This document shows positions 5,943 to 25,150 of a DNA stretch of 25,475 nt, one piece after another. The number at the start of each line of letters is the position of its first letter. Within the stretch, counting starts at the first letter, position 1. Made by a program: the position numbers and the translations under genes. The stretch lies in UHGV virus genome UHGV-0146066. One strand, written 5' to 3'. The notes under the pieces were generated by a model. That model was not told the DNA's origin. It ran no database searches and saw nothing but the letters and a program-made list of their open reading frames with translations. The DNA is from a virus.

Positions 5943-8900
5943 TTATTTAGTTGCTTTCAGTTCGGCAATTTCTTTCTGTAATGCTTCGATCTGGGCTTTA
6001 TATTTGGCGTCCATTTCCTGCATAGCTTTGATGATTAAAGCATTGACAGCAGAGTTAGAAATAGTCTTGATTGCTTCTGGATTTTCTGGATCTTCGGTGG
6101 ATTGAATACCTACTGCTTCCGGCAATACTTCTTCCAGATCCTGAGCAATAATACCTACTTCGCGTTTAATCACACTACGGTCTTTAAGAGATTTAACTTT
6201 ATCGTAGGTGTAGACTTTCAGTGAGTTTACTTTCTCTAATGCGCCGTCCTGTAATTCTTCCTTGTTAATCTTCAAACGGGAGTCAGAGCGAATGTAAACA
6301 TCGTTAAACGAACCGTTACGACCTGCGGTAAAGTCACCAGCAGCGTTAAAGTCAAAGTTAGTATCATGAACATGGAGACGAACAAGAGCGTTACCGATAG
6401 TACCGTCAGGAACGTGCACACCCATTGCTGCAATGTGATATTTACCCCAATGCGTCGCTTTCCATACGTTATGTGCCGAGTTGGTGGAATGAGGACACCC
6501 AACCATAAGACCAGCAGCACGGTCACGCCAGCTAGCCCAACTACCGCCAGCAACTTCACCACGAATCAGGCCATTACCGCCACCGGTTACAGTACCAGAT
6601 TCCAACTGGATCATCTTATCCGCAAGTTTCCACGTCTGGGCTTGTTTCTGACCACGGAAGCGAATAACACCAGCATCATCGGAATACATCAAACCTAGTT
6701 CTAAGCCATTCGGATCTCTAAACCACAAATGCTTATTACCAGTGCGCTTAAATTCAATATCAGCACCGTTAAGCGTGATATTACCGCCAGTGTGAATTGC
6801 TTGAGGCTTAACAGTACCGTTGATGGCAAACTCAATTGCCGTAGTACCCGGACCGCCCGGACGTTGGGTATACCAATGCCAACCGCTTTCATCAGCACAT
6901 TCAAATACTTGTTTACGAGCATCAGCGCCCCATGCACGAATATTGAAACTAGAAGTAGCTGTACCCTTACCCCAGCGAATCAGACCAGCAGATTCCAAAT
7001 CACCGAAGAATTTAGTTTTAATCGCACCAGTTGCTAAAGTACGTTCAGTGGTGAAGTGAGCACCTTTACTATCTTCAAGCTGTATAACGTTATCACGAGC
7101 GTTATTGCTATCGCCCCAATGACTCAAACGGAAATAGTCGCGGGATTGTCCAGCACCAGCATCAAATGTTAAATATTGGCCTTTAATGTATGTGTTTCCA
7201 GCAAAACGAGCAGCACGACTTGCACGTTCTAAGACTAATGCACCTTCGTTACCATCACCACCCAAAGTAACATTACCGCTACCCAGATTGTAAATGAATG
7301 GACGATAGCCGTTCCAACCACCAAATTTATCATTTTCGGCAGTAGACAGAAGATATACGTTTTGACCATCATTACGCCAGAATGCACCATAGTTACCGTA
7401 AATCATACGGAATGCATCACTGTTAGCAGCTACATATTGACCATTGGTGTATACAATTTTGGTAGCACCTGTGCTTAAAGATACTTGACCACTTGCTTCT
7501 AATTTAACAAAGTTTTTACCTTCGTCACTATACCATTGAAAATCGTTAGTATCTGTAGAACCAAAACCAAACCAGCCTTGACGTTTATTAGCCCCGTCTC
7601 GCTGATCCATATATTCAAAATAGTTACTACGACCAGTAGGACGCCACATACGAATCGCGTTATTGCCTTGCAGATGAAGTCTATCGACAAATAAACCATC
7701 ACTACCAACAATTTTTAATACTTCTTTTTGGTCGGTGGAACCAGTAGCCAAACGATACACATCACCTTGAACAGTTTCATGCCATATTGTTTCCGCCGCA
7801 CGACTGCGGAATTTACGCATATATTTTTTATTGTTGTCTGGTACGTTATTAAGGCTCACAATATCATAGGTTGCTTGTGAGTTATTATCAAACATCAACG
7901 TTCCGGCTTTGTTTTCGGTGTTGAACATCGTAATAACACGAGCATCGGTAACACCAACAGAAGGTTTAACGAGAGTTAATTCAGGAACATCATGTACTGT
8001 CAGAGTAACGCCATCAGTTTTACCGTATTCGACAATAACGTTATCGGTGTAACGACCGTAGTTAACGTAGATATCGTAGTTATCACCGGAAGTATTAACC
8101 GCAAATACTTGATGAACGTTCAGAGCATTTCGACGATAAGCAGCAATACTAACGCCTTTCGGGTTATTGTTACCGGAACGGATGACAATTTCTACAAAGT
8201 CAACCTGATCATAAGAGTTAACGTTATAACCATTACCACCGAAGATACGAAGCATTACCATTCGACCATTCTGTGGGATCGTAGCGGTTGCGATCTTGAA
8301 GTATCCACGAGTAGCATCACCAGAAGGAACGGTCATTCTAACGTTCTTGATGAACATCTGATCAACTTCGGCTTTACTATACACACCCAATTCAGTCGGA
8401 GTCGGCTTATCACCTTCGTGATACATGCGGTAGCTGAATCGCTTATTACCATCTTTATCAAAGCCATAGGTTTTAACTTGAGATGAGCTAGACCCATAGT
8501 GGAACTCAAAACCGCGACCGTGTGCTTTACCGCCAGAATGAGGAATGTTAAGGATTAAGTTACCCCAACCTTCGGCATTGTTTGGACGGAATGCACCAAA
8601 ATAATCAAGGTTACGAGCACCAGCATCATCAAAATAGTTAGCTGTTTTGGTTAACAGATAGCCGTGATGGTAAGTGTTGGTATTCTTCTTGATGTAAGCA
8701 GCATCGGCACTACCTTCAATAGAATCAATTCGCTGGTTAGCTGCGGCAATTGCGGCATCAGTAGAAGATTTATTCTGGTCTACCTTGTTGTTAATTGCTG
8801 TATGGTTGCTATTAACTGTCCCCGTAAGATTGGTGATCTTCGTGTCGGCATCGCGTTTATTATTTGCTACGGTCGTTTCTATGGCTGATTTATTTGCTGA

Positions 8901-9443
8901 GACAGTATTCGTTAAGTTAGTAACGTTGGTATTAGTCTGATCAACTCGTGCATTAATATCTGTCTTGTTCTTGTTAATTGTTGCGTTGATAGTATCGCGG
9001 GTTGAAGTAATAGTCTGATTCAGTTCAGTCTTAGCAGCCGCCAGAGCGTTAGCCGCTTCGGTTTTATTGTTACCTACTGTGGTAGTCAAAGCATCAATTC
9101 GTTTGTTGGCTGCGGTGTCGCCAGCAGTGATTGAAGCATTGAGAGCATCACGGGTAGAAGTGATAGTCTGATTCAGTTCAGCTTTAGCACTAGCCAGATT
9201 ATTAGCGGCTTCTTGTTTGTTGGAAGCAATAACACGGTCAGTGCTAGTTTTGTTATTGTCTACTTTCGTATTCAGTTCAGCGTGTTTTTCTGGAGAAACA
9301 CTAATTTGGACTACGTTATTATTTTTGTCTTTGGTGTAAATCACATGATCCGCCAACTGTAAGGCGATTTCACCCTGTGATAATTGTTCCGGCGTTGGTT
9401 TTTTACCCGCCGTCTGTGTGCGTTTAAATTGGATTGATTGCAT
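5943..9443 (-). CDS. Tail fiber protein with C-terminal intramolecular chaperone (peptidase S74-like) domain, 1166 aa
   Basis: N-terminal KRTQTAGKKPTPEQLSQGEIAL fiber motif, repetitive Thr/Asn-rich shaft, and a C-terminal RSDSRLKINKEEL...VGIIAQDLEEVLPEAV...ALIIKAMQE region typical of autoproteolytic fiber chaperone domains. AGGTGA Shine-Dalgarno. Confidence 0.8.
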   Translation of the reverse strand: MQSIQFKRTQTAGKKPTPEQLSQGEIALQLADHVIYTKDKNNNVVQISVSPEKHAELNTKVDNNKTSTDRVIASNKQEAANNLASAKAELNQTITSTRDALNASITAGDTAANKRIDALTTTVGNNKTEAANALAAAKTELNQTITSTRDTINATINKNKTDINARVDQTNTNVTNLTNTVSANKSAIETTVANNKRDADTKITNLTGTVNSNHTAINNKVDQNKSSTDAAIAAANQRIDSIEGSADAAYIKKNTNTYHHGYLLTKTANYFDDAGARNLDYFGAFRPNNAEGWGNLILNIPHSGGKAHGRGFEFHYGSSSSQVKTYGFDKDGNKRFSYRMYHEGDKPTPTELGVYSKAEVDQMFIKNVRMTVPSGDATRGYFKIATATIPQNGRMVMLRIFGGNGYNVNSYDQVDFVEIVIRSGNNNPKGVSIAAYRRNALNVHQVFAVNTSGDNYDIYVNYGRYTDNVIVEYGKTDGVTLTVHDVPELTLVKPSVGVTDARVITMFNTENKAGTLMFDNNSQATYDIVSLNNVPDNNKKYMRKFRSRAAETIWHETVQGDVYRLATGSTDQKEVLKIVGSDGLFVDRLHLQGNNAIRMWRPTGRSNYFEYMDQRDGANKRQGWFGFGSTDTNDFQWYSDEGKNFVKLEASGQVSLSTGATKIVYTNGQYVAANSDAFRMIYGNYGAFWRNDGQNVYLLSTAENDKFGGWNGYRPFIYNLGSGNVTLGGDGNEGALVLERASRAARFAGNTYIKGQYLTFDAGAGQSRDYFRLSHWGDSNNARDNVIQLEDSKGAHFTTERTLATGAIKTKFFGDLESAGLIRWGKGTATSSFNIRAWGADARKQVFECADESGWHWYTQRPGGPGTTAIEFAINGTVKPQAIHTGGNITLNGADIEFKRTGNKHLWFRDPNGLELGLMYSDDAGVIRFRGQKQAQTWKLADKMIQLESGTVTGGGNGLIRGEVAGGSWASWRDRAAGLMVGCPHSTNSAHNVWKATHWGKYHIAAMGVHVPDGTIGNALVRLHVHDTNFDFNAAGDFTAGRNGSFNDVYIRSDSRLKINKEELQDGALEKVNSLKVYTYDKVKSLKDRSVIKREVGIIAQDLEEVLPEAVGIQSTEDPENPEAIKTISNSAVNALIIKAMQEMDAKYKAQIEALQKEIAELKATK

Positions 9444-11255: not shown

Positions 11256-13262
11256 TCATTCAGCGGAGATGTGAAGAACTTTCAGAGCTTCCGGCTGAAC
11301 TACGGTGAAGTCCAGGTCTACCCAGATACGCGGAACGATAGCAGACTGTGCGCGGTAAGTGGTGTCGTCCATATCCAGTTCCAGACCACCCCATTCACCG
11401 ATCATGATACCGGAGAAGTCACCCAGAACGATGTGGTCTGCCGGAATAACGCCAGAAGTAACTACATCGTAACCAGCCAGTTTGCCGTTTTCGATGATAT
11501 AACCGGAAACGCCGTTATCTTTCAGGGTAGATTCCAGTTCAGCAGCAGTTGCACCGCTCATTGCAAACTTGATGGACTGTGCCGGAACGCCAGCGTCGGT
11601 CAGTGCTGCAATTTCTTTCAGGAAGTCTTTGTAGCTAAAAGCGGCTTTCTTAGTAACGCGACCACCGTCTACCAGTTGCTTAACCAGACCTTTCGGACCG
11701 CGCTCGTTGTCTTTGTCAGACAGAATCAGTTGTTCCAGTTTGATCCGAACAGATTTGTTAATGTGATCAGTGATCAGGGTAGCAATATTCGGAACAGTTT
11801 TCAGAGACTGACGGCTGATCGGGTTGCCACCAGCAAAAGTTTTCGGAGCCATTTTCACGTTTTCAAAGCTAGCCTTCGATTCGGGGGCACTTCCATTTTC
11901 ATCAACAAAACCAAAGGCTTCGACGCTGGAAGCAGTCATTTTTGGTACTGCAATCGGGCTATTCAGACCAGACAGAACAGTCACACCCAGACGACCCAGA
12001 ACAGACTGTGGAAGCAGCATTTCTACATAGGATTCGGTCAGCAGTTTTTCGTCGGTTACAGCGGTCAGAGTAGCTTTGGTGTTACCTTCGGAAGCAGCAC
12101 GCAGAGCAGCAGCCGGAACGAATACAGAGCCACCGCGAGCAGCACGACCACGCTGCATTGCAGCACCAGCAGCCATAGCGGAATATTCAGCTTCGTTAGC
12201 GCCGAGCACGTCGCCATCTACCAGGGAGCGGATTACGTTATTAAGATCGAAAGTTTTTTCCATGATTTGTTCCTTATTAATTTGTTCGTTATTACGTTGA
12301 ACATTGGTAATGTTATTTAGTGCCTTAGTGCGGAATGCTTCCGGCGTCATATCTTTAACTGCCAATGCGCGTTCTAATTCTTCGTCGTTAATATTTAACT
12401 CACGAGCGATTGCTCGGATTTCTTCTTCGTCTTCTTCGGAACGTTCAGCCACTTCTTCGATTTTTTCTTCTTCAACCGGAGCGGCTTCACGTTCTTCTTT
12501 TACTTCTTCTGTTTCCCGAACAGTTGAACTATCATCATCAACACTTTCAGGATGTTTAGCGTCTTTTCCGTCTTCGAGATTTTCATCTTCTTTATTCTCT
12601 TCAACTTGGCGCTCTTGAGTTTCTTCTACTTCCGGTTCTTTATTTTCTTCTACCGGAGTTTCTTCAACCTGAGCGGGTTCTTGTTCTTCTTTGATTTCTT
12701 CGATTTGTTCTTTAGTCATATCGCGTTTAGCCTCCAAATTAACTGTGATAGTATTTAGAGAGCGATTCAGACCCACGGTGTCGTCTGCGGGAACAGACAC
12801 CCATGAAACCTCGTGAGGAATCCATTTAGTAACAATCAATTGTCCTTTGGTGTAGTCGATGTGATATTCTTTAATGTCATAACCGACAGAAATTTTTTCC
12901 ATCGTACCTTCAATGACTTTATTACGAATATCATTAGCCAAAGTGCCATGCTTAGAGAATTTAACCAGAGCACGACCTACGTTATCCGCATCGATTCGAG
13001 CGTTACAAACGACACCAATATGATTATCGAAATTATGATTGAACAGCAACGGAGCGTTATTATTCAGACGAGACAGATCAACCGCTTCCGGTGTATGTAC
13101 CAGAATTTCATCTAATACCACCATTTCTTGATTTTGCTCATCCCAGAATTGGCGCTGATAAGGCTGTTCACTGGAGAAAGCAATTTCAAATTCGTATTGA
13201 TCATTCTGCCCTTCGTTAATAACTCCACCGTAACCGTTAAGATCGCGGCGAAATTTAAGCAT
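11256..13262 (-). CDS. Prohead protease - scaffold-like acidic linker - HK97-fold major capsid protein in one 668-aa ORF
   Basis: N-terminal ~180 aa protease-like region, then a very acidic Glu-rich segment, then a C-terminal ~335 aa capsid-like region (GGSVFVPAAALRA...). Internal AAGGA-N7-ATG at 12263 could start a separate capsid product. Confidence 0.7.
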   Translation of the reverse strand: MLKFRRDLNGYGGVINEGQNDQYEFEIAFSSEQPYQRQFWDEQNQEMVVLDEILVHTPEAVDLSRLNNNAPLLFNHNFDNHIGVVCNARIDADNVGRALVKFSKHGTLANDIRNKVIEGTMEKISVGYDIKEYHIDYTKGQLIVTKWIPHEVSWVSVPADDTVGLNRSLNTITVNLEAKRDMTKEQIEEIKEEQEPAQVEETPVEENKEPEVEETQERQVEENKEDENLEDGKDAKHPESVDDDSSTVRETEEVKEEREAAPVEEEKIEEVAERSEEDEEEIRAIARELNINDEELERALAVKDMTPEAFRTKALNNITNVQRNNEQINKEQIMEKTFDLNNVIRSLVDGDVLGANEAEYSAMAAGAAMQRGRAARGGSVFVPAAALRAASEGNTKATLTAVTDEKLLTESYVEMLLPQSVLGRLGVTVLSGLNSPIAVPKMTASSVEAFGFVDENGSAPESKASFENVKMAPKTFAGGNPISRQSLKTVPNIATLITDHINKSVRIKLEQLILSDKDNERGPKGLVKQLVDGGRVTKKAAFSYKDFLKEIAALTDAGVPAQSIKFAMSGATAAELESTLKDNGVSGYIIENGKLAGYDVVTSGVIPADHIVLGDFSGIMIGEWGGLELDMDDTTYRAQSAIVPRIWVDLDFTVVQPEALKVLHISAE

Positions 13263-13307: not shown

Positions 13308-14819
13308 TTAGGGATCGGTTTGAGAAGGGTTATCCTTGCTCTCACCATCAACGATAATATTTAGTGCGCTCTTTTCGGCTTGAATCTCTGAGAATACTTT
13401 TTCAGGATCATCACCACGTTCTAATATAACGGCAGTACGTGATTTAAGTCCGTTATCAATTAAAGCAATCTCGGCGCTTACGTCTTTAAATGGATCGACG
13501 GATTCAAAACGAGGACGAATAATAGTAGTGTTCTCGATAATATGCGGAATTGCAGTAATACGAATCGGAACAATACCACGCGCAGAATAATGGCGTAGAT
13601 ATGCTTCAAAAATTGGCAATACCACTGTTTCAATCAATTTGTTTTGCAGTGCTTTAACGCGCGTTCTTTGAAGTAATTCGCCGTAGCGTGCGGCGCTGTA
13701 ATTTATTTGGCTAGTATCGCCAGTTAAGCCCTGATTGAACACGCCAAGACCCATCGCTATACTCGTGAACATTCCATCATTGAAGCTGTTAAAGTCATCG
13801 CCGCTTTGCGTGGATTGAATACTCTTGATCGTTGCCCCTTCCGGTAATTCCTGAATAGTACCTGGCGCGAAATCGTGAATAACTTCCGGCGCTTGATATT
13901 GTTCATCATCTTCACCAGTATCAAAATCGTCACCAGAATCTTTCGGACGCTCGATGAACGCCATGCTACAACTTGAAATTCGTTTATGTACCAGTACAGC
14001 TTCGCGGAATGCGTCTTGATGTGCGATATCCTTAATCACTGGCAGGAAGTCAGTCACACCACGCAGAGATTCAGCCGCAAGTGGTTGATAATAATGACAT
14101 ACTTGCGAAGCATCTACGCGATAGTTATCACCTGTGTAAGTCTGAGTCAGTAGGTTGATTTTACGAAACCAAAATGCAACAGGGCGCATTGTTTCTACGT
14201 CATACTCGATCCCCTGATAGATAGCGCGTTCTTTGCTTACTTCACGGTTGAGCGTCCAGTCGCACTTATCAGCAGACAGGATAGAAACATTTAACTCATT
14301 GTTTTCTTTGGTTAAAACTATGAAGCACTCACCACCCATAACGCGCTCACGTTCAGCCATTACCAGCAATTCACGGAAGTTAAAGCGACCGTTACGAGAG
14401 AAGCGTTTAGCATTCTGCGCCCACTTCCAGAAAGCATTCTCGATCTGCTTATTCAGTGCGCTATCAAGTTTTCCATTTGATTTAACAACTGACGGCTTCG
14501 GATCTAGGCCAGTACCTACCACCATATCGGTGATGTATTGCGTGTAGCGACTGCCTACGGAGGTGTTTAAGGCCAGAGTACGACCCTGATCATAAAGGCG
14601 CTTACCATTCGATTTGAGAGCCTTATTGAAGGTTCCTGTGATAGTATCTTGTTGAAGCGATCCATCAATGCGATCACCAACCAGACCTAAACTTCGAGTA
14701 GCCAGAGATTTCTGGAATTTTTCTACTTGTTTGTCGATAAAGATTTTTTGTTGTTGCTGGCGGTGATTAGTTTTAACTGGAGTTTCTACCGCCTTTTTGC
14801 GTCGAAAAAGATTAAACAT
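13308..14819 (-). CDS. Portal protein, 503 aa
   Basis: Size and position between the terminase and protease/capsid genes. AGGGG Shine-Dalgarno. Acidic C-terminus. Confidence 0.7.
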   Translation of the reverse strand: MFNLFRRKKAVETPVKTNHRQQQQKIFIDKQVEKFQKSLATRSLGLVGDRIDGSLQQDTITGTFNKALKSNGKRLYDQGRTLALNTSVGSRYTQYITDMVVGTGLDPKPSVVKSNGKLDSALNKQIENAFWKWAQNAKRFSRNGRFNFRELLVMAERERVMGGECFIVLTKENNELNVSILSADKCDWTLNREVSKERAIYQGIEYDVETMRPVAFWFRKINLLTQTYTGDNYRVDASQVCHYYQPLAAESLRGVTDFLPVIKDIAHQDAFREAVLVHKRISSCSMAFIERPKDSGDDFDTGEDDEQYQAPEVIHDFAPGTIQELPEGATIKSIQSTQSGDDFNSFNDGMFTSIAMGLGVFNQGLTGDTSQINYSAARYGELLQRTRVKALQNKLIETVVLPIFEAYLRHYSARGIVPIRITAIPHIIENTTIIRPRFESVDPFKDVSAEIALIDNGLKSRTAVILERGDDPEKVFSEIQAEKSALNIIVDGESKDNPSQTDP

Positions 14820-15396: not shown

Positions 15397-17301
15397 TTAG
15401 AACGATGTTACCCAGCTACGGCCTCTATTTGGGCGTCTGGCGATGTTTTTACGTTGTGGTCGTGTGATTGGCTTATTTTCTTCGATTTGCTCGTCAGATT
15501 GCGATTTAGGAGCTTCTACGGGTTCTTCTGGTTCGCGGTTCAAACTATCTTTGATGGCTTCGAGTTTTTCCCATGACATTTTATTGAGTACATGGCGAGA
15601 AGCAGCATAGGAATAAGCCAGGCAGTCGAGAGCCTCGTTTCGTTGCTGACCAACTTTTACCCAACGTGTGGTATTACCCTGCCGTTTCAACTGTTCAGAT
15701 AACAATTGTTCGCAGTAGTCATCAGGAACGTCACCAATCTGGAAGACCGTATGAGGATCGCTGTCTCTCAAGTTCCGGTTAATCATTTCACGGATCATCG
15801 TCTTAAGGTTGTTTACGCCCAGAATTTTAAGAGTAAAACCACCCGTTCTTGTGTCCTTGACCGGAAGGATTGGAGCATCAACATTGCTTGCCCCTTTAAT
15901 GGCGCATAGGTTTTGCCACCTAGTGCAGAAGCGATAGATCACGTTTGTAGCTCGTCCGTTCGATGAGTCCACGAAAGCAGATAGCATCGGGATTCGTTGA
16001 CCTGATCGGGTATAGAATTTAGCTTTCAGGAAGTTGTAAAGCTGGTCATATGCTGGCGATTCGTGGCGTTCGCAGTTCACATCATAGAATGATCGGTGAT
16101 CAACTACGCATATCCCCTTACGAGAGATACCCAGCAAGGTAGATTCCAGACGGTCTTTTTGCTGGTCAACTCCACCTACCAGAGCCAGAACATCATCAGG
16201 AATATTATCTAAGCTAATGTCAGTTTTCAGCGTTTCCAGTTCGTCGGCTGTGCGGTCTTCGTTAAGATCATCGAAGGTTTCACCGAGCACCACATTATAG
16301 AACGTTGCCAGTGACATATTCGCGTAGCTATCAGCAAAGTCCACCACACACGCACGGATAGAACTAAACGGAGACATAAGGCGGTTAGCATGAAAACCGA
16401 TTACTTCCGCATTTGGTTCGGTGGCGACCCATTCTCCCTGAGCAACAGCACGGAGGCGATCTGGTTCTGACCAATCAGTTTCACATGACGGGCAACGGTA
16501 AACGGCTGTGTCTGGATTCGGCAGTGATTTACCATTGATTACATGCCAATCAAAGAATACTCTACTCCATTCCATTACGTGTTTGTGTCCGCAATGCTGG
16601 CAAACGACGTGGTATTTTCTTTTATCCGAGAGTTCCCATTGTTGGTTTATCGCCCCATCCCGCGAAGTTGGAGTAGAAGCAATTACGATCCTTGCATCAT
16701 CACCGAAAGTGGTTGCGCGTTGTTCCGCTAGCTGGATCGGGTTCCCTTCGTCTGACTCATCAGCCGCATCAACTTCATCCAGAATAATCAAAGGCAGTGT
16801 CTTACCGCGCAAGTGTGATGGACTGTTCAGCGACATGAAATACATGAATGATCCGTTACGAAGCTGAATAATCGATGAGTTGTTAACGGCATTGCGATCT
16901 GATTTGTCGGTGATCATCGCCTTTAATTCTGGGGTTGCCTCTAATACTGGCTTCACCTTACCCGCAATCCATGAGTTCAATTCTCGAACGTTCGCTTGCA
17001 AAACACCGATATTAGTAGGGTTACTGGCGATCCTGTGAAAGATAATACCGTTTAGCACAAGAGTTTTACCCAACTGTGCCGAGCACTTTAGCACAATTTT
17101 TCGCCTATCTTCGGTGATCGCGTCCATCATTCCACGTTGGAAGGGATGCAACTTAATTAGAGATCCGGCTTTAACACCATCGGTTGCAACTACATTAGCC
17201 TCTACCCATTCGCTAGGTTTCATCGTTTTAGGTGGGCGAATTGCCGCAGAGATATTTTTAAGAATCTTTTTTAATTTGGCCTTATTAGAAATCAGTTTCA
17301 T
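15397..17301 (-). CDS. Terminase large subunit, lambda gpA family, 634 aa
   Basis: N-terminus IRPPKTMKPSEWVEANVV resembles gpA RPEPQTAVEWADANYY. Also IKGASNVDAPILPV versus gpA IKGASVYGKPV, and RNEALDCLAYSYAA versus RNEALDCFVYALAA. GAGGGT Shine-Dalgarno. Confidence 0.85.
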   Translation of the reverse strand: MKLISNKAKLKKILKNISAAIRPPKTMKPSEWVEANVVATDGVKAGSLIKLHPFQRGMMDAITEDRRKIVLKCSAQLGKTLVLNGIIFHRIASNPTNIGVLQANVRELNSWIAGKVKPVLEATPELKAMITDKSDRNAVNNSSIIQLRNGSFMYFMSLNSPSHLRGKTLPLIILDEVDAADESDEGNPIQLAEQRATTFGDDARIVIASTPTSRDGAINQQWELSDKRKYHVVCQHCGHKHVMEWSRVFFDWHVINGKSLPNPDTAVYRCPSCETDWSEPDRLRAVAQGEWVATEPNAEVIGFHANRLMSPFSSIRACVVDFADSYANMSLATFYNVVLGETFDDLNEDRTADELETLKTDISLDNIPDDVLALVGGVDQQKDRLESTLLGISRKGICVVDHRSFYDVNCERHESPAYDQLYNFLKAKFYTRSGQRIPMLSAFVDSSNGRATNVIYRFCTRWQNLCAIKGASNVDAPILPVKDTRTGGFTLKILGVNNLKTMIREMINRNLRDSDPHTVFQIGDVPDDYCEQLLSEQLKRQGNTTRWVKVGQQRNEALDCLAYSYAASRHVLNKMSWEKLEAIKDSLNREPEEPVEAPKSQSDEQIEENKPITRPQRKNIARRPNRGRSWVTSF

Positions 17302-18335: not shown

Positions 18336-19133
18336 TTACAGTCCGAAGTGTTCTAGCGATCCAACATTCTGACGAATCATGATAGTCGCTTTATTCTGAA
18401 TCATGATCGTGTTATTCGGTTTAGGCAGTGTCAAAGCTGCTTTTTGTTCTTCTTCAAGAACACCCAATTCAACCAGCACCGGAAGCACATCAACAGTGAA
18501 AGAAAGTTGATAGTGAGCGTTCATGCTGCAAAACGGTATCGCGGAATCATTAGCAACATACCCACACGGCTTGTTATTTTCATCATAGACGCGCTCAATG
18601 TATCCGGCAGTACGTAAGGCCGTCAGTGCTTCTTTAACCTTCGTAGCGCCCTTTTTAGCACCTAACAGACGCGTCATTGAATGGCTATCTACGGATTTGC
18701 GATGATGTAGAGTAATCAGTTGCTTGTTCTCGCGAGTTTTCTTTAACGCCAGTTCGATCCAGTCGGTTTCTTCAAAGTCTGCATACGGGTTAACGGCTAA
18801 ACGTTCCTGACGCAGTTTTTCATTTTCTTCTTTCAGTCGTTTCCATTCCTGAATAACAATCATTCGACGTTTAACATCGTAACCAGTAACAAGAGTCAGC
18901 GTCATTTCTTCGTCAAGGTGATATTCGGTTTGTTCGCGTCCATATTGGTCAAAATAGATACGCTGAGATTTCAGCGCATCTAATTCAAGTGCTTTAAACA
19001 TCTTAACAATATCAGCTTTAACGTTTTTGTGTTCTTTTCCGGTAAATTCAGCGATCTGACGAGAAGACATGGTCAGTGGTTTGGTGTTATCAACAACCAG
19101 AGACACGGAAGCAGTTTTAACAGCAGTATTCAT
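18336..19133 (-). CDS. Phage regulatory protein, Rha family (N-terminal Rha domain), 265 aa
   Basis: N-terminal LTMSSRQIAEFTGKEHKNVKADIVKM matches the remembered Rha-domain signature. AGGGGG Shine-Dalgarno. Confidence 0.7.
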   Translation of the reverse strand: MNTAVKTASVSLVVDNTKPLTMSSRQIAEFTGKEHKNVKADIVKMFKALELDALKSQRIYFDQYGREQTEYHLDEEMTLTLVTGYDVKRRMIVIQEWKRLKEENEKLRQERLAVNPYADFEETDWIELALKKTRENKQLITLHHRKSVDSHSMTRLLGAKKGATKVKEALTALRTAGYIERVYDENNKPCGYVANDSAIPFCSMNAHYQLSFTVDVLPVLVELGVLEEEQKAALTLPKPNNTIMIQNKATIMIRQNVGSLEHFGL

Positions 19134-19492: not shown

Positions 19493-19960
19493 TTACAGCA
19501 TATCTAAGCCTTCATCGTAACCGTAGAAGCCACCGTGAGAAGAAAAAGCGATTGGTGCGTAGTCATCATCATCTTCGTCTTCTTCATCGCGTTCTGGTGC
19601 TTTCTGAGCGGTTTCTTTGCCGTAGTTAAACATTGCTTCATCCAGTTCTTGAAGAGTAAAGAAGCTACCCAGATCAACATCACCGGAACGGACTTCGAAA
19701 GGAAGGTATTCGCTAACGATGATCGCTGGAATATTCTGGTACTTTAAGCGGCCTTCATCGGTGAAGACGTTAACAACAATGGTCGGCTTCTTATTACGGC
19801 AAAACGCATACCATGCACTAGAGAAATGAGATTCATCAGAGTTGAAAAGAATGTTGTAACCACGTTCAACAAAGATCTTCATTAACTTGTCATTGTGGAA
19901 GCTATCAGCATCAAAACCTAACAGGATGAAAGGAGTAGTGGTAGTCATTTTATGGTTCAT
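19493..19960 (-). CDS. Hypothetical early protein with acidic C-terminus (EEDEDDDDY), 155 aa
   Basis: AGAGGA Shine-Dalgarno 8 nt upstream of ATG at 19960. No recognisable domain. Confidence 0.5.
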   Translation of the reverse strand: MNHKMTTTTPFILLGFDADSFHNDKLMKIFVERGYNILFNSDESHFSSAWYAFCRNKKPTIVVNVFTDEGRLKYQNIPAIIVSEYLPFEVRSGDVDLGSFFTLQELDEAMFNYGKETAQKAPERDEEDEDDDDYAPIAFSSHGGFYGYDEGLDML

Positions 19961-20503
19961 AGTGGAAATCCTCTAAAAGAAAGTGAATCAATCTAATATT
20001 ATTTATAAAGAGAAAATTCTTGTTATTATGAAAAGAGTGATCTGGTAGAGTCCAAAACTGGTCTGTACTTGAAAGATGATTGGATTCAGTCGGGCTAAAG
20101 CCCCCCTTCATAGATTTGATTAAATCATCATCAAAACGAAGAAGTATCTTTAGAATATAAGAATCTTTCTTTTGAAGAAATAATAATCAGGAAGCAATTT
20201 AGCAACCGAAGGTTGCAATCCCGAAGGGATACCAATACCTTTCTAGAAATTGATTGTTACTCACTTCGTTCGTTTACTAGAATCAGTTAGTAACTAGTAT
20301 TAAATCCCTTTCGAATCCTGCTTGCAGGTCTTAGAAGGTGTTGGTGGGCGCTACGCGCACGGCTACGCCGTATTCTTTTTGCGAGATCTTTCTTGAACGT
20401 AGTGAGAGAAAGCGAGCAAAAAGGAGAACGTTAGTTCGAATTTTATATTCTATGGTCTGTGGGGTATAATACCTTTCAAGGTCATACACTTACGTGATTG
20501 AAG

Positions 20504-20622
20504 TGTAGGGTTAGTGTAGGTGTGTAGGTTTCATAGTGTAGGTTTGAGGGTGTTATAGTGTAGGTTTACTGGCTAGTGTAGTGTAGGCCAATCCCTTTAA
20601 AGGGTAGGTGTGTAGTGTAGGT
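20504..20622 (+). repeat. Array of at least 7 direct GTGTAGG(TTT) repeats (iteron-like)
   Basis: GTGTAGG at 20504, 20515, 20523, 20537, 20559, 20582 and 20616, plus GTGTAGT variants, with irregular spacing. No ORF on either strand. Confidence 0.75.
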
Positions 20623-20818
20623 TTTCAATCAAAAATTTTGACAAAAAATTCTTGTATATTATTCAACCAAAAAACCACCAAAAATAGATGTAAATTCATG
20701 ATTTAAAAGAAATTTTCAAAAGATCTCCGTGCCATATAAGGTTTAAAAGGTTGATAATCATTATTTGCCATTTTCAAACAAAAATTTTGATACACCTTTC
20801 TCGCTTAGATCATGAATG

Positions 20819-20847
20819 TTGACATGTGTCAAGAACTATTTTATACT
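20819..20847 (+). promoter_or_regulatory. Strong sigma70 consensus-like promoter (TTGACA, 17-bp spacer, TATACT)
   Basis: -35 at 20819-20824 and -10 at 20842-20847, in an AT-rich context. Predicted start near 20854. Confidence 0.65.
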
Positions 20848-20853
20848 TTTTAT

Positions 20854-21013
20854 CCTTGGTAGGGGTTGAAATTTTCCAAACAATCCCCATATAGATGATA
20901 AGCATGATTTTTCGTGTATAAATACAATGCATGAAAAATGATTGTTCACTTCTGAAAATCCCTTGACTAACTGTTAATTCATACAGCACTGGTTAGATAT
21001 GCAGTGCTTTTTC
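20854..21013 (+). ncRNA. Candidate ~160-nt small RNA or leader transcript between the strong promoter and the first terminator
   Basis: Bounded by the promoter at 20819-20847 and the terminator at 20986-21013. Only an 8-codon ORF without a Shine-Dalgarno lies inside. Confidence 0.3.
20986..21013 (+). terminator. Intrinsic terminator (7-bp stem AGCACUG/CAGUGCU, then U5)
   Basis: Stem 20986-20992 pairs with 21003-21009; T-run 21009-21013. Confidence 0.6.
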
Positions 21014-21136
21014 GGTCGAATATTGTACGAATTGATTAATTATCAATCTTCTCTTTAGCAATTCGTGCTCCCACTGATCGGATATACAGTTGTTTTACAG
21101 AGTTTTTGAAAATCATTTTTATAAATAGAATTGTTC

Positions 21137-21156
21137 AGAGCGAAAAGCTCTTTTTT
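21137..21156 (+). terminator. Short hairpin with GAAAA pentaloop and U6 (terminator/attenuator; boxB-like architecture)
   Basis: AGAGC-GAAAA-GCUCU followed by TTTTTT, 35 nt upstream of the ATG at 21192. No promoter lies between it and the operon. Confidence 0.5.
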
Positions 21157-21191
21157 AAGGAATTATTAATCCACATGTGAGGAATCGATTT

Positions 21192-21371
21192 ATGGCTAGA
21201 CCTGTTAAATTTACTCGTGAAATGATTGTTGATATTGCTAAACGGTTTTACAGCGACACTGAGCGAGGCGGGGAAAACTTCTTTAAGAAGGAAGGGATTG
21301 ATAGAAGCGGATTCTATAAGCTAATGAAGAAATACGAAATTCAGGTAAAGATTAACGTTCAAGTTTGTTAA
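21192..21371 (+). CDS. Small HTH-like protein (ARPVKFTREMIVDIAKRFY), 59 aa; paralog of 18029-18253
   Basis: GAGGAA Shine-Dalgarno upstream of ATG at 21192; the track GTG start at 21177 is less likely. Shares the RP-x-(K/R)F-x-RE...I/V...Y motif with the 18029 ORF. Confidence 0.55.
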   Translation: MARPVKFTREMIVDIAKRFYSDTERGGENFFKKEGIDRSGFYKLMKKYEIQVKINVQVC

Positions 21372-21487
21372 TCCACTTTCACTGAGAATTATATGATGGC
21401 TTTAAAAATAAAAAGCCTCCCTTGTTGCAGCAAAGGAGACTTGAAATGAACAATTAAAACTAACACAGCATTCAGGAGTATTTATAA

Positions 21488-22501
21488 ATGAAAAATTCTA
21501 AGCGCATCACCTTCAACCTATTCATCAAATCCAACGGCAAACTGAACATTACCGTTATGGAAGGTAAAGCAAGCAAACAAGACAAATCCTTTGAAGTAGT
21601 ATCCGGTAAGACTCTGACCGAAATGCGTCAGAATGCTGGCATCAAAGACGGTGCTGAATGGCAGATCACTAACCGTTTCGACAAACGTCACGTTAAACCT
21701 ACACTGGTAGAAGGTGAATCCGTTTATTGCTTCGCTCGTGCTGTTAAAGCCGATGAAACTTACTATCTCGCTGTTATTAAAACTGCTTCCGGCTTCCGTG
21801 CTGTAATGCATCACAAGAGCAAGCGTAACGAATACGGCGTAGAGACCCAGGAAGTTGCAAAACGCTTCCGTACTGTTGCTACTGAATCCACTGTAAAGGA
21901 TGTTTCTGGTACTGTTAACACCGCTAAAGGCGGTTCCTTCTACAACCACGCATTACAGGTTACTTCCTCCTTCTTCTGCAAAAAAGAAGCACAGAAAGAA
22001 GTTGCTCCGGTAGTAGTTGAAGAAGTTAAAGAAGAAGTTGCAGTGGTTGAATCTTCCGAAGTTGAAGCACTGAAAGCACGCATTGCTGAACTGGAAGCTG
22101 AAAACGCATCTCTGAAAGCTGAACTGGCAGCGCAGGAAACCACTTTCGAAGTAGCAGCGGTTGAAGTTGAAGCAGTTGAAGAAAAATCCATTGATGAAGA
22201 ACTGGAAGAACTCCTTAACTATCGCTGGGGTAACGGTGAAAAAGTAGGACAGGAAGAACAGAAAGAAGCTGATCCGGTAGTAGTTCCGGTTGAAGAAAAA
22301 TCCGCACCTGTTACTAACTTTGAATCCCTGCGCAATAACTTTATGGCTAAATTCAAAACCACTTGGGAAGATACCGAAGAAGAACAAGAAGAGATTGAAG
22401 TAAACGAAGACGAGATCCGCGAAGCACAGATGGCACTGCATGACGCTATCTATGACACCAACTACAGCGCCTACGCCTACGCCTACGCCTACGCAGCTTA
22501 A
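21488..22501 (+). CDS. Abundant-looking acidic coiled-coil protein ending in SAYAYAYAYAA, 337 aa
   Basis: AGGAG Shine-Dalgarno 8 nt upstream. Codon choice looks biased toward common E. coli codons. Acidic, coiled-coil C-terminal half. No domain recognised. Confidence 0.65.
   Translation: MKNSKRITFNLFIKSNGKLNITVMEGKASKQDKSFEVVSGKTLTEMRQNAGIKDGAEWQITNRFDKRHVKPTLVEGESVYCFARAVKADETYYLAVIKTASGFRAVMHHKSKRNEYGVETQEVAKRFRTVATESTVKDVSGTVNTAKGGSFYNHALQVTSSFFCKKEAQKEVAPVVVEEVKEEVAVVESSEVEALKARIAELEAENASLKAELAAQETTFEVAAVEVEAVEEKSIDEELEELLNYRWGNGEKVGQEEQKEADPVVVPVEEKSAPVTNFESLRNNFMAKFKTTWEDTEEEQEEIEVNEDEIREAQMALHDAIYDTNYSAYAYAYAYAA
22469..22492 (+). repeat. Hexanucleotide microsatellite (GCCTAC)x4 encoding the C-terminal (AY)4
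   Basis: Four perfect tandem GCCTAC units immediately before GCAGCTTAA at the end of the 337-aa ORF. Confidence 0.9.
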
Positions 22502-22516
22502 TAGAGAGGTAATTCT

Positions 22517-22759
22517 ATGATTAATCAAAACAAAGAATTTCTTGGTAATCTGATGTTAGAAATTACCAAAATGAAAGAAAGAATGGTAGCGATGGAATCA
22601 GAGATTAAAACTCTTAAAGCTGATAATAAGGCGTTGAGAAAGTCCTTAAAACTGATTGATGAGACTAATGCGGTTATGATGGATCAGGTGTTTCCTGAGT
22701 GGCGAAATGAAACTAAACCTACACAACATAAGAAACCTACACTTCGAATTGTTGCATAA
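22517..22759 (+). CDS. Small coiled-coil protein, 80 aa
   Basis: AGAGAGG Shine-Dalgarno. Heptad-like pattern (KERMVAMESEIKTLKADNKALRKSLKLI). Last gene of the plus-strand operon. Confidence 0.5.
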   Translation: MINQNKEFLGNLMLEITKMKERMVAMESEIKTLKADNKALRKSLKLIDETNAVMMDQVFPEWRNETKPTQHKKPTLRIVA

Positions 22760-23469: not shown

Positions 23470-24024
23470 TTAAGACACATCAAATTCATCGTCTTCTTCT
23501 GGTTCTTGTTCCGGTTCATCCATTAATGCTAATTCTTCTTCCTCGTCTTCTCCCAAATCTGCATTTTCGAACAAGTCCCCTACTTCATTTAAACGACGTT
23601 CGATGATCTCCCTTAGCTTATTCTTCAATGTTTTCTGATCAGTGGCGGATTCTAAAATTTCTAGGGCATCGATCGTACAAATCTGCAAAATAGTCTGTTT
23701 CACTTTCCCGCAGTATTCCGCTAGTTCCTGTTCTACATAACCGACAGGAATCAGGAGATTCATTTTTTCCTGGTTCTCTCGTTCGGCTGCATCTGCCAAA
23801 GCACGTTCACGGCGTAATTTCTCTACGTCGATTTGTTCTTTGATAGAAGTTTGTTTAAGCGGGTTGATAATATTTTTCAAGACCCATTCTGTTCCTTCTT
23901 TGGCTGGCACGCGGCGGGTATTGGTGTTAAATGGCAATCCCCTTTCTAACCATCGCTTACCGCCACCATTCAATGTATAGCCATATAAACGGGAAATTTC
24001 TGTAAGGGTTAATTCTTCTTTCAT
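23470..24024 (-). CDS. Terminase small subunit, lambda Nu1-like, 184 aa
   Basis: N-terminal LTLTEISRLYGYTLNGGGKRWLERGLPF and EKLRRE resemble remembered Nu1 segments LADIFGASIRTIQNWQEQGMPV, GGGK and EKLRRE. Acidic C-terminus. Strong GGAGGA Shine-Dalgarno. Confidence 0.5.
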   Translation of the reverse strand: MKEELTLTEISRLYGYTLNGGGKRWLERGLPFNTNTRRVPAKEGTEWVLKNIINPLKQTSIKEQIDVEKLRRERALADAAERENQEKMNLLIPVGYVEQELAEYCGKVKQTILQICTIDALEILESATDQKTLKNKLREIIERRLNEVGDLFENADLGEDEEEELALMDEPEQEPEEDDEFDVS

Positions 24025-24382: not shown

Positions 24383-25150
24383 ATGAAAAACATTATCGCT
24401 GCTATCATGCTTTCTGCTACTGCTTTCGGTGCTGATGCTGCGTCCTTTGATTGCACTAAGGCTACTACCAAATCAGAGAAGTTTATTTGTGCTAATGAGT
24501 CAATCTCCGCACTGGATTCTAAACTTCATGAAGTATATGTTAAGGCTGTTAAGATTAATCCGTCTCTTAAACAAGAGCAACGTAACTGGAATAAAACTGT
24601 TCGTGACACAATGATCAATATCGGGCAGATTCAGCCACTGGAGGCTGTATACAACGCTCAAATCCAAAACTTGATGAATGTATTATCTAAAGAAGAAACC
24701 GCGTCAGGGAGCGTTTCAGAGACTTCTGCGAAGGTTGAAGAAGAACAACCGAAACAGGAAGAAAAAGTGGTGGAAGAACCGAAGGTTGAAGATAAACCAA
24801 AAGGATTTACCGGAGACATGACATTGCAATGCGATGTTCACTATAGCTGGGAAATCCAAGACGGGGTAGAAACAAAAGCAGTTAAAGACATTGGCTATCC
24901 TCGTTATAACTCTGGTGAACTTAAACTTAAAGTAAAAGACGGGGAAATTATTGAATTTGTGTATCGTGATAATTATGACGCGCATAAAGCAAAGACAAAA
25001 ACAGTGACGCATCAGAATGGCGCAATGCAATATGAAGGCCAAGTGGATAACAAAAAATATTATGTGTGGCGTGATAATCAAGATATGATTCGCTTAGAAG
25101 TACATAAAAAATATTCAAGAACATACATTGACCAGTACGGGTGCAAATAA
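24383..25150 (+). CDS. Secreted protein with N-terminal DUF1311 / LprI-like domain, 255 aa
   Basis: Sec-type signal peptide MKNIIAAIMLSATAFGADA. FDCTKATTKSEKFICANESISALDSKLHEVYVKAV fits the remembered DUF1311 pattern. AAGAGG Shine-Dalgarno. Confidence 0.55.
   Translation: MKNIIAAIMLSATAFGADAASFDCTKATTKSEKFICANESISALDSKLHEVYVKAVKINPSLKQEQRNWNKTVRDTMINIGQIQPLEAVYNAQIQNLMNVLSKEETASGSVSETSAKVEEEQPKQEEKVVEEPKVEDKPKGFTGDMTLQCDVHYSWEIQDGVETKAVKDIGYPRYNSGELKLKVKDGEIIEFVYRDNYDAHKAKTKTVTHQNGAMQYEGQVDNKKYYVWRDNQDMIRLEVHKKYSRTYIDQYGCK

Follow-up and report, generated by a model that had tools for sequence, protein, structure and literature searches.

A putative array-binding protein with a variable Ala-Tyr tail in an uncharacterized prophage lineage

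The 337-amino-acid open reading frame and its family

The window, i.e., the whole analyzed stretch of DNA (25,475 nucleotides of UHGV virus genome UHGV-0146066), comprises most of a prophage. It contains an open reading frame (ORF) of 337 amino acids (aa) at 21488 to 22501 on the plus strand, referred to below as the target gene, whose product ends in ...HDAIYDTNYSAYAYAYAYAA directly before the stop codon. An array of short direct repeats is located about 0.9 kb 5' of this gene. Comparison with related prophages revealed that the type of the N-terminal domain of the target protein follows the repeat type of the array and that a microsatellite coding for Ala-Tyr (AY) units at the 3' end of the gene differs in copy number between otherwise identical alleles. 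The gene, its parts, and the array are as follows.

21488 to 22501, plus strand: target ORF, 337 aa, with the highest codon optimization among the genes of the window
21474 to 21478, plus strand: Shine-Dalgarno sequence AGGAG, 9 nucleotides 5' of the target ATG, read from the sequence
21488 to 21991, plus strand: N-terminal domain (aa 1 to 168), basic, predicted b-b-b-a-a-b-b-b topology, no known family or fold; its type tracks the upstream repeat type
22052 to 22138, plus strand: predicted coiled-coil or leucine-zipper-like helix (aa ~189 to 217), EALKARIAELEAENASLKAELAAQE, inside the acidic half
22430 to 22468, plus strand: conserved C-terminal motif MALHDAIYDTNYS (HD..Y.TN[YF]S), common to a 66% identical orthologue and a 313-aa positional analogue of sister prophages
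22469 to 22492, plus strand: (GCCTAC)4 microsatellite coding for (AY)4, from allele comparison and Tandem Repeats Finder (TRF)
22493 to 22501, plus strand: GCA GCT TAA, the terminal Ala-Ala and stop codon; the [A/V]-Ala end is kept in all homologues of the N-terminal domain
20503 to 20625, plus strand: iteron-like array of about 8 to 10 direct copies of GTGTAGG(T) on one strand, with spacings in multiples of 11 bp

A first-pass annotation of this DNA had described an acidic protein with a strong ribosome-binding site and codon choice suggestive of high expression. The expression signals were borne out by the AGGAG sequence and by a frequency of optimal codons (Fop) of 0.84 and a codon adaptation index (CAI) of 0.68, the highest values among the 25 ORFs of the window. 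The capsid gene ranked second (Fop, 0.72; CAI, 0.51). The CAI values are approximate, and Fop was determined with the standard optimal-codon set. The codon bias was seen in both halves of the target gene and persisted when Glu and Lys codons were left out (Fop, 0.82). It was also present in the orthologues of other prophages, where the target gene always equaled or exceeded the capsid gene. The description as an acidic protein held for the C-terminal half, which carries a net charge of -31 (isoelectric point [pI] of 4.1) and a predicted long helix, but not for the N-terminal 168 aa, which are basic (net charge of +12; pI of 9.8).

Searches of Pfam, PHROG, NCBIfam, PADLOC families, and Protein Data Bank sequences revealed no match to the target protein, only sub-threshold coiled-coil noise, in agreement with the earlier remark that the N-terminal ~170 aa lack a recognizable motif. 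An exhaustive phmmer search of 1.84 billion representatives returned just six matches, and a profile search with the family alignment retrieved close relatives only and added nothing. Scans of viral and metagenome contigs yielded only relatives at least 93% identical, a scan of species-representative genomes yielded no homologue, and a literature search with the WP accession of the protein found nothing. The diverse family analyzed here was assembled from the six phmmer matches and a search seeded with the most distant of them. It includes P0121, P0124, and P0126 (66%, 44%, and 29% identical to the target protein, respectively), P0138 and P0139 from Salmonella, P0140 from Proteus mirabilis, and P0141 from the Proteus group.

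The AlphaFold model of the full-length protein was poor (predicted local distance difference test [pLDDT] of 48). Its only long segment above 70 was the long helix starting at residue ~189 (pLDDT, 76 to 83), and a second helix at residues 307 to 336 had lower confidence. Modeling of the N-terminal domain from eight diverse sequences reached a pLDDT of ~80 for residues 30 to 110 and gave the topology b-b-b-a-a-b-b-b, for which no fold match was found. Structure prediction and homology searches, proposed in the first-pass annotation as a check, thus assigned no well-characterized unrelated function.

Covariation of the upstream array with the N-terminal domain

Every related prophage carries an array approximately 0.85 to 1.3 kb 5' of the target gene, and the repeat sequence differs between prophages. 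The exact sequence GTGTAGGT occurs nine times in the window, five of them in the array, against an expectation of 0.41. Seven loci representing four repeat types were compared.

Window and L007: repeat GTGTAGGT
L005: repeat GTGCAGGG
L002 and L003: repeat TCAGGGGCAA
L027 and L029 (Salmonella, Proteus): repeat CTAGGGAT

Loci of the same repeat type encode similar N-terminal domains. Over the N-terminal ~170 aa, the identity was 78% between the window and L007, 99% between L002 and L003, and 71% between L027 and L029, compared with 3 to 27% between groups. The identity to the L005 domain was 46%, and the L005 repeat is also the one most similar to the window-type repeat. The other proteins encoded at these loci, namely, the 155-aa protein, Rha, the 201-aa and 76-aa proteins, the small terminase (TerS)-like protein, and a 59-aa helix-turn-helix (HTH)-like protein, do not track the repeat type. 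The TerS-like protein is 91% identical between the window and L002. The window and L002, with their different repeats, encode 59-aa HTH-like proteins that are 100% identical, whereas the L002 and L003 versions, despite a shared repeat type, are just 59% identical. A protein that stays unchanged when the repeat type changes does not determine repeat specificity, and the 59-aa protein was therefore rejected as the reader of the array.

A blastn comparison of the window with L002 revealed just two unalignable patches, one covering the array (20315 to 20627) and one covering the target gene and the adjacent 80-aa ORF (21488 to 22755). The 860 bp between the two replaced patches show 89% identity, and the alignment breaks off precisely at the target ATG. 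Since only the N-terminal domain covaries with the repeat type, this domain appears to be the specificity reader of the array. A sequence-specific DNA-binding role is suggested because the domain is both basic and tracks the upstream array.

In lambdoid phages, the N-terminal domain of the O protein and the ori repeats change together. The prophages studied here resemble this pattern in that the type of the N-terminal domain covaries with the type of the repeated sites and in that protein and sites are exchanged together, in two separate patches, between otherwise similar phages. Both proteins also have an acidic or flexible middle part and a C-terminal part that binds a partner or, in the target protein, may do so. 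The target protein differs from lambda O in that it shows no sequence similarity to it and no Pfam Phage_rep_O or PHROG replication-initiation match. Its repeats are 8 to 10 bp long, direct, phased by 11 bp, and located 0.9 kb upstream, whereas those of lambda are located inside the gene, and the prophage has no P-like helicase loader. Iteron plasmid initiators (RepA, pi, TrfA, and RepE), several of which are remodeled or degraded by Clp chaperones, offer a second comparison. Like these systems, the locus combines tandem direct repeats beside an A+T-rich stretch (26 to 28% GC) with a nearby gene for the putative binder. In contrast to them, no Rep_3 or winged-helix signature was found in the target protein, the repeats have half the usual length, and there is no conserved DnaA box.

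The noncoding gap that holds the array and the short unit that follows it contain the following further features.

20626 to 20810, no strand assigned: most A+T-rich stretch of the gap, directly after the array; 89% conserved in a sister prophage
20819 to 20847, plus strand: promoter-like TTGACA-17-TATACT, 11/12 matches, with the -35 element inside a palindrome
21137 to 21157, plus strand: terminator-like hairpin and T-run at the end of the leader, just 5' of the 59-aa ORF
21192 to 21371, plus strand: 59-aa HTH-like ORF that opens the unit; a prophage of another repeat type has a 100% identical copy
21413 to 21442, no strand assigned: hairpin with a 12-bp stem between the 59-aa ORF and the target gene; the stem is kept in L005 despite base changes

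Two copies of the near-palindrome TCAAAAATTTTGA, 149 bp apart, lie within the A+T-rich stretch. The palindrome at the -35 element of the strong promoter reads TTGACAtgTGTCAA in the window, and its conserved form, TTGACAnnTGTCAA, is also present in L002, L005, and L007, i.e., across four loci of three repeat types. Because the promoter has its own palindrome, unchanged across three repeat types, the array repeats are probably not the operator of this promoter. A regulator that is independent of the repeat type, possibly the 59-aa HTH-like protein or Rha, probably uses the palindrome as its operator. An origin-like function of the array is favored because the promoter appears to have its own operator and the repeats lie ~190 to 320 bp away from it.

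An untranslated leader of ~300 nucleotides (20850 to 21191) separates the promoter from the 59-aa ORF and holds a conserved box, CTCTTTAGCAATTCGTGCT, at 21052 to 21070, of which L005 has two copies. This leader might act in attenuation or antitermination or give rise to a small RNA; Rfam searches identified no RNA family in the window. The hairpin at 21413 to 21442 has the form of an intrinsic terminator on the minus strand alone, in antisense orientation to the target gene, and may be an mRNA-stabilizing or processing structure. Isolated repeat copies were also found outside the arrays. Two inverted copies of the window type lie at 22717 to 22742 on the minus strand, at the 3' end of the 80-aa ORF, and the 9-mer CAGGGGCAA occurs once between the ~75-aa gene and the Rha gene (L002, position 2637; L003, position 2636), where 0.1 copies are expected by chance. 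These copies may be secondary binding sites.

The Ala-Tyr tail and its alleles

The end of the target protein, NYS(AY)4AA, is encoded by the perfect (GCCTAC)4 repeat followed by GCA GCT TAA. TRF reported a repeat of period 6 at 22468 to 22494 with 4.5 copies and 100% matches, the sole perfect array of more than four copies in the window. This confirmed the (AY)4AA end and its microsatellite origin, both recognized in the first-pass annotation, which had further predicted that in-frame slippage changes the tail length and had proposed comparing isolates. Such a comparison revealed one haplotype in which gene bodies identical to that of the window (969/969) are followed by 2, 3, 4 (window), 6, or 11 GCCTAC units. 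In a second haplotype (954/969), the other unit is expanded, giving GCCTAC (GCATAC)4. Since different units are expanded in the two haplotypes, expansion occurred at least twice. All observed expansions are in frame and retain the terminal Ala-Ala.

The commonest allele is imperfect at the DNA level (GCC TAC GCA TAC GCA GCT TAA). Among the cluster representatives of close homologues, (AY)2AA was found in 100, (AY)3 in 5, (AY)4 in 6, and (AY)5 in 8, and the same protein core was found with differing numbers of AY units. All of the ~120 tail-bearing representatives have at least two AY units and the terminal Ala; one close variant ends in AYAYVA. Therefore, the repeat noticed at the outset is real, but four units are not the norm: the usual family state is (AY)2AA, from which the (AY)4 of the window was derived by expansion. 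The tail expansion is recent, and the repeat is hypermutable. It resembles simple-sequence contingency loci in being a perfect short tandem repeat within a coding sequence whose copy number varies between otherwise identical strains. It differs from them in that the 6-bp unit never shifts the frame, so that the length of the tail is altered without an on/off switch.

Although the family's C-terminal regions could not otherwise be aligned, an [A/V]-Ala end was present in all eight members carrying the N-terminal domain.

Target protein: YAYAA
P0121: YAYAA
P0124: VRRAA
P0126: ILKAA
P0138: LNIAA
P0139: YLNVA
P0140: LKNVA
P0141: LKNVA

P0121 encodes AYAYAA as GCT TAC GCT TAC GCT GCT. The peptide has thus been kept through synonymous change, because P0121 uses other codons.

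In a screen of C-terminal pentapeptides in Escherichia coli, 91% of the 100 strongest degrons ended in Ala-Ala and were ClpXP dependent; LVA formed the end of the best tag, and [L/F/Y/W]-[L/A/R]-L-A-A emerged as the consensus (PMC10862746). The same study found that Ala-Ala alone is insufficient for degradation and that strong tags are neutral or basic (PMC10862746). Natural ClpX signals include those of ssrA (...YALAA) and cleaved RseA (...GVAA), and lambda O is a ClpXP substrate via its N terminus (PMC8138137). The target protein fits the consensus with Tyr at position -5 and Ala at -4 and departs from it at -3, where Tyr replaces Leu. Like ssrA, RseA 1-108 (VAA), and LVA tags, the family has Ala-Ala, or Val-Ala in some homologues, after aromatic or aliphatic residues. 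When the ends are aligned, ssrA (AANDENYALAA) and the common allele (DTNYSAYAYAA) match at 5 of 11 positions (N3, Y7, A8, A10, and A11). Unlike the ssrA tag, the tail is encoded in the genome rather than added by tmRNA, and it has Tyr instead of Leu at -3. It lacks the SspB-binding part (AAND), with only N and Y aligning in the (AY)2 allele, and the expanded alleles shift NY away from the end so that this register is lost. The tail fits the class of C-terminal degrons loosely, and an ssrA-like ClpX degron, already considered in the first-pass annotation, is plausible and has gained support from the comparison of homologues. Like lambda O, the target protein would then be a candidate ClpXP substrate, with the difference that the signal is N-terminal in lambda O and the candidate signal is C-terminal in the target protein.

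Prophage context and likely role

Further genes of the window are listed below.

1643 to 3997, minus strand: tape measure gene
5943 to 9443, minus strand: tail fiber gene
11256 to 13262, minus strand: protease-capsid fusion gene with an internal ~250-aa linker
13308 to 14819, minus strand: portal gene
15397 to 17301, minus strand: lambda-type large terminase gene
18336 to 19133, minus strand: Rha-family gene
22517 to 22759, plus strand: 80-aa coiled-coil ORF, directly 3' of the target gene and replaced along with it in sister prophages
23470 to 24024, minus strand: TerS-like gene (phrog_57; E value of 6e-11)
24383 to 25150, plus strand: LprI-family gene

In complete E. coli genomes, the element is ~35 kb long and interrupts hicB, the antitoxin gene of the hicAB toxin-antitoxin pair. 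A gene for a large serine recombinase is located at the far end of the element; the integration site was derived from loci L004 (NZ_CP065607.1) and L001 (NZ_CP124819.1). Sister prophages are integrated in ycdX. Strain C325 carries a decayed element, in which an IS3-family transposase gene adjoins a truncated protease-capsid gene. Neither a replication gene nor a CI/LexA-type repressor gene is annotated in the complete element. The target ORF had no DNA or protein match in 50,697 phage records and 72,556 plasmids, and no isolated phage has a capsid protein more than 43% identical to that of the element. On these grounds, the element is considered to represent an uncharacterized prophage lineage. 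A 1.5-kb query matched 63 (1.2%) of 5,426 complete E. coli genomes, and 18 have the full target gene type. The lineage is also present in Shigella, Escherichia albertii, Salmonella, and Proteus.

Wherever contigs were long enough to judge synteny, the target gene occupied the same position in prophages of E. coli, Salmonella, and Proteus. The locus reads, in order, large terminase gene (minus strand); genes for the 201-aa and ~75-aa proteins (plus); genes for Rha, the ~60-aa protein, and the ~155-aa protein (minus); a noncoding gap of 1.2 to 1.6 kb; the ~60-aa HTH-like ORF (plus); the target gene (plus); and the TerS-like gene (minus). Because it holds the same position in prophages of three genera, the target gene is a core gene rather than cargo or an accessory gene, and its assignment to a moron or anti-defense island was rejected. 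The small gene downstream of it is not conserved: it encodes 80 aa in the window, 93 aa in L027, and an unrelated protein of at least 137 aa in L005, and it is absent from L002, L003, and L029. It changes along with the C-terminal region of the target protein, and the 80-aa protein could be a partner of the latter.

The core gene for the 155-aa protein (19493 to 19960, minus strand) is divergent from the target unit. Its product has an extremely acidic stretch, matches no family, and has a C-terminal end, ...DDDDYAPIAFSS..GYDEGLDML, that is conserved in all seven loci. The tail fiber gene and the region around 24400 to 24790, part of the LprI-family region, show ~80 to 88% nucleotide identity to RB49/Krischvirus, a virulent T4-like group, in its distal long-tail-fiber (gp37) and holin regions. 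This similarity suggests gene exchange between the temperate prophage and lytic myoviruses.

Taken together, the target protein is tentatively interpreted as an array-binding protein, most likely an origin-recognition initiator, whose C terminus carries an ssrA-like ClpX signal; this interpretation is given a rough probability of 0.45. The ORF itself, its codon bias and synteny, the variation in repeat number, the covariation of array and N-terminal domain, and the conserved terminal dipeptide are direct observations; DNA binding, the replication role, and recognition by ClpX are each what we infer from the comparisons above. The basic N-terminal domain would read the array repeats, the coiled coil would make the protein dimeric or oligomeric, and the acidic, flexible half would present the short conserved C-terminal motif to a partner. 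Its most likely role would be origin recognition, i.e., replication initiation of the ~35-kb prophage, analogous to lambda O or a plasmid Rep protein. The hydrophobic stretch and terminal [A/V]-Ala would form an ssrA-like signal read by ClpX, so that the protein would be made in large amounts and then turned over or remodeled by ClpXP. The (AY)n run would serve as a slippage-prone spacer before the terminal Ala-Ala, and expansion of an ancestral (AY)2 would alter its length and keep the end. The layout of the array, whose repeats are direct, on one strand, phased by 11 bp, and followed by the A+T-richest stretch of the gap, counts in favor of this interpretation. The covariation, the replacement in two patches, the basic N-terminal domain, the separate palindrome of the promoter, the core position in three genera, the codon adaptation, and the conserved protein ends also favor it, and no other replication gene is recognizable in the prophage.

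Several observations weigh against it. The protein shows no similarity in sequence or fold to Rep, lambda O, winged-helix, or other DNA-binding families, and the model of its N-terminal domain is reliable only for residues ~30 to 110. Codon adaptation above that of the capsid gene is unusual for an initiator. No DnaA boxes or GATC clusters are conserved in the gap. The array and the target gene lie within 2.4 kb, so that part of their coinheritance could be due to linkage alone. As for the tail, Ala-Ala by itself is not enough for degradation, and across the family, Tyr, Arg, Lys, Ile, or Asn occupies position -3, where Leu would be preferred. The tail follows a very acidic region, whereas the best tags are neutral or basic. 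The 313-aa positional analogue in sister prophages ends in YCQ and shares the HD..Y.TN[YF]S motif.

This last observation also supports the possible, if unlikely, alternative that the tail has no role in degradation and that [A/V]-Ala and the AY units form a partner-binding peptide or the end of a helix, with neutral slippage causing the repeat variation. The range of 2 to 11 AY units in otherwise identical genes suggests that tail length is weakly constrained, and the two expansions from different units are what mutation pressure would give. However, the terminal dipeptide is kept across C-terminal regions that cannot otherwise be aligned, AYAYAA persists despite synonymous changes in an orthologue that is 66% identical overall, and the ~120 tail-bearing representatives include no allele below two AY units or without the terminal Ala.

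It is rather doubtful that the protein binds the array without being an initiator, either as a master regulator or immunity repressor resembling the Mu repressor or as a repeat-coating protein resembling ParR or omega. The Mu repressor combines an N-terminal DNA-binding domain that recognizes many repeated sites, a leucine zipper, and a C-terminal tail governing ClpXP sensitivity. The layout proposed for the target protein (DNA-binding N-terminal domain, zipper-like helix, and C-terminal ClpX determinant) is alike; the target protein shows no sequence similarity to the Mu repressor (c/Rep), is larger, and has a long acidic region, and its repeats do not overlap predicted promoters. The covariation evidence applies equally to such a protein, and the swapping of protein and sites between nearly identical prophages is also the pattern of heteroimmunity. 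The lack of an annotated CI/LexA-type repressor in the complete prophage and the single repeat copy ~14 bp upstream of the -35 element in L005 point in the same direction. On the other hand, the array of the window lies ~190 to 320 bp from the strong promoter and ~450 bp from leftward promoter-like sites, and the palindrome of the strong promoter does not change with the repeat type. No NTPase partition partner is present, and repressors are rarely the most codon-optimized gene of a phage.

A further reading, which follows the first-pass annotation, is that of an abundant acidic early protein serving as a decoy or inhibitor of ClpXP or as a DNA-mimic anti-restriction or host-takeover factor. 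No support was found for the DNA-mimic, anti-restriction, or host-takeover role, and the reading as a whole is improbable. Very high codon adaptation, the acidic C-terminal half (-31), and the conserved ssrA-like end would agree with it. Nevertheless, no PADLOC, Pfam, or PHROG match to Ocr, ArdA, or anti-defense families was found, the gene belongs to the syntenic core and not to a variable island of accessory genes, and a basic N-terminal domain that tracks a DNA repeat would be needless for a decoy or a mimic. In contrast to Ocr and ArdA, only the C-terminal half of the target protein is acidic. A scaffolding, TerS-like packaging-specificity, or other structural role is extremely unlikely: although the architecture (N-terminal domain, coiled coil, and C-terminal partner motif) resembles that of a small terminase or scaffold and the expression signals at least equal those of the capsid gene, the capsid gene is already a protease-capsid fusion with its own linker, a separate TerS-like gene that does not track the repeats is located elsewhere, and the target protein has no TerS match and is encoded outside the structural operon on the opposite strand, so that the scaffold or TerS role was rejected.

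Interpreted as an array-binding initiator, the target protein is a variant of known themes, i.e., Clp-controlled phage initiators or regulators and coding microsatellites, and not a categorically new system. It is quite unlikely, though conceivable, that it represents an unrecognized class of phage origin- or array-binding proteins with a new fold and an ssrA-like tail in which (AY)n acts as a heritable length dial tuning ClpXP turnover. If the length-dial reading were true, (AY)n would also set how sister lineages differ in prophage replication or induction. A new DNA-binding fold may be present in the family. The tail amounts to a natural experiment in which one protein carries 2 to 11 Ala-Tyr units before a conserved ClpX-like end, and its alleles could serve to find out how recognition by AAA+ proteases depends on the length of the spacer and whether protein stability in enterobacteria is tuned by coding microsatellites. 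No isolated relative of this lineage turned up in the phage collection searched, and the lineage lacks recognizable genes for replication or a repressor. The identification of a likely array-binding protein and of its DNA site provides an entry point to the replication or control of these unstudied prophages.

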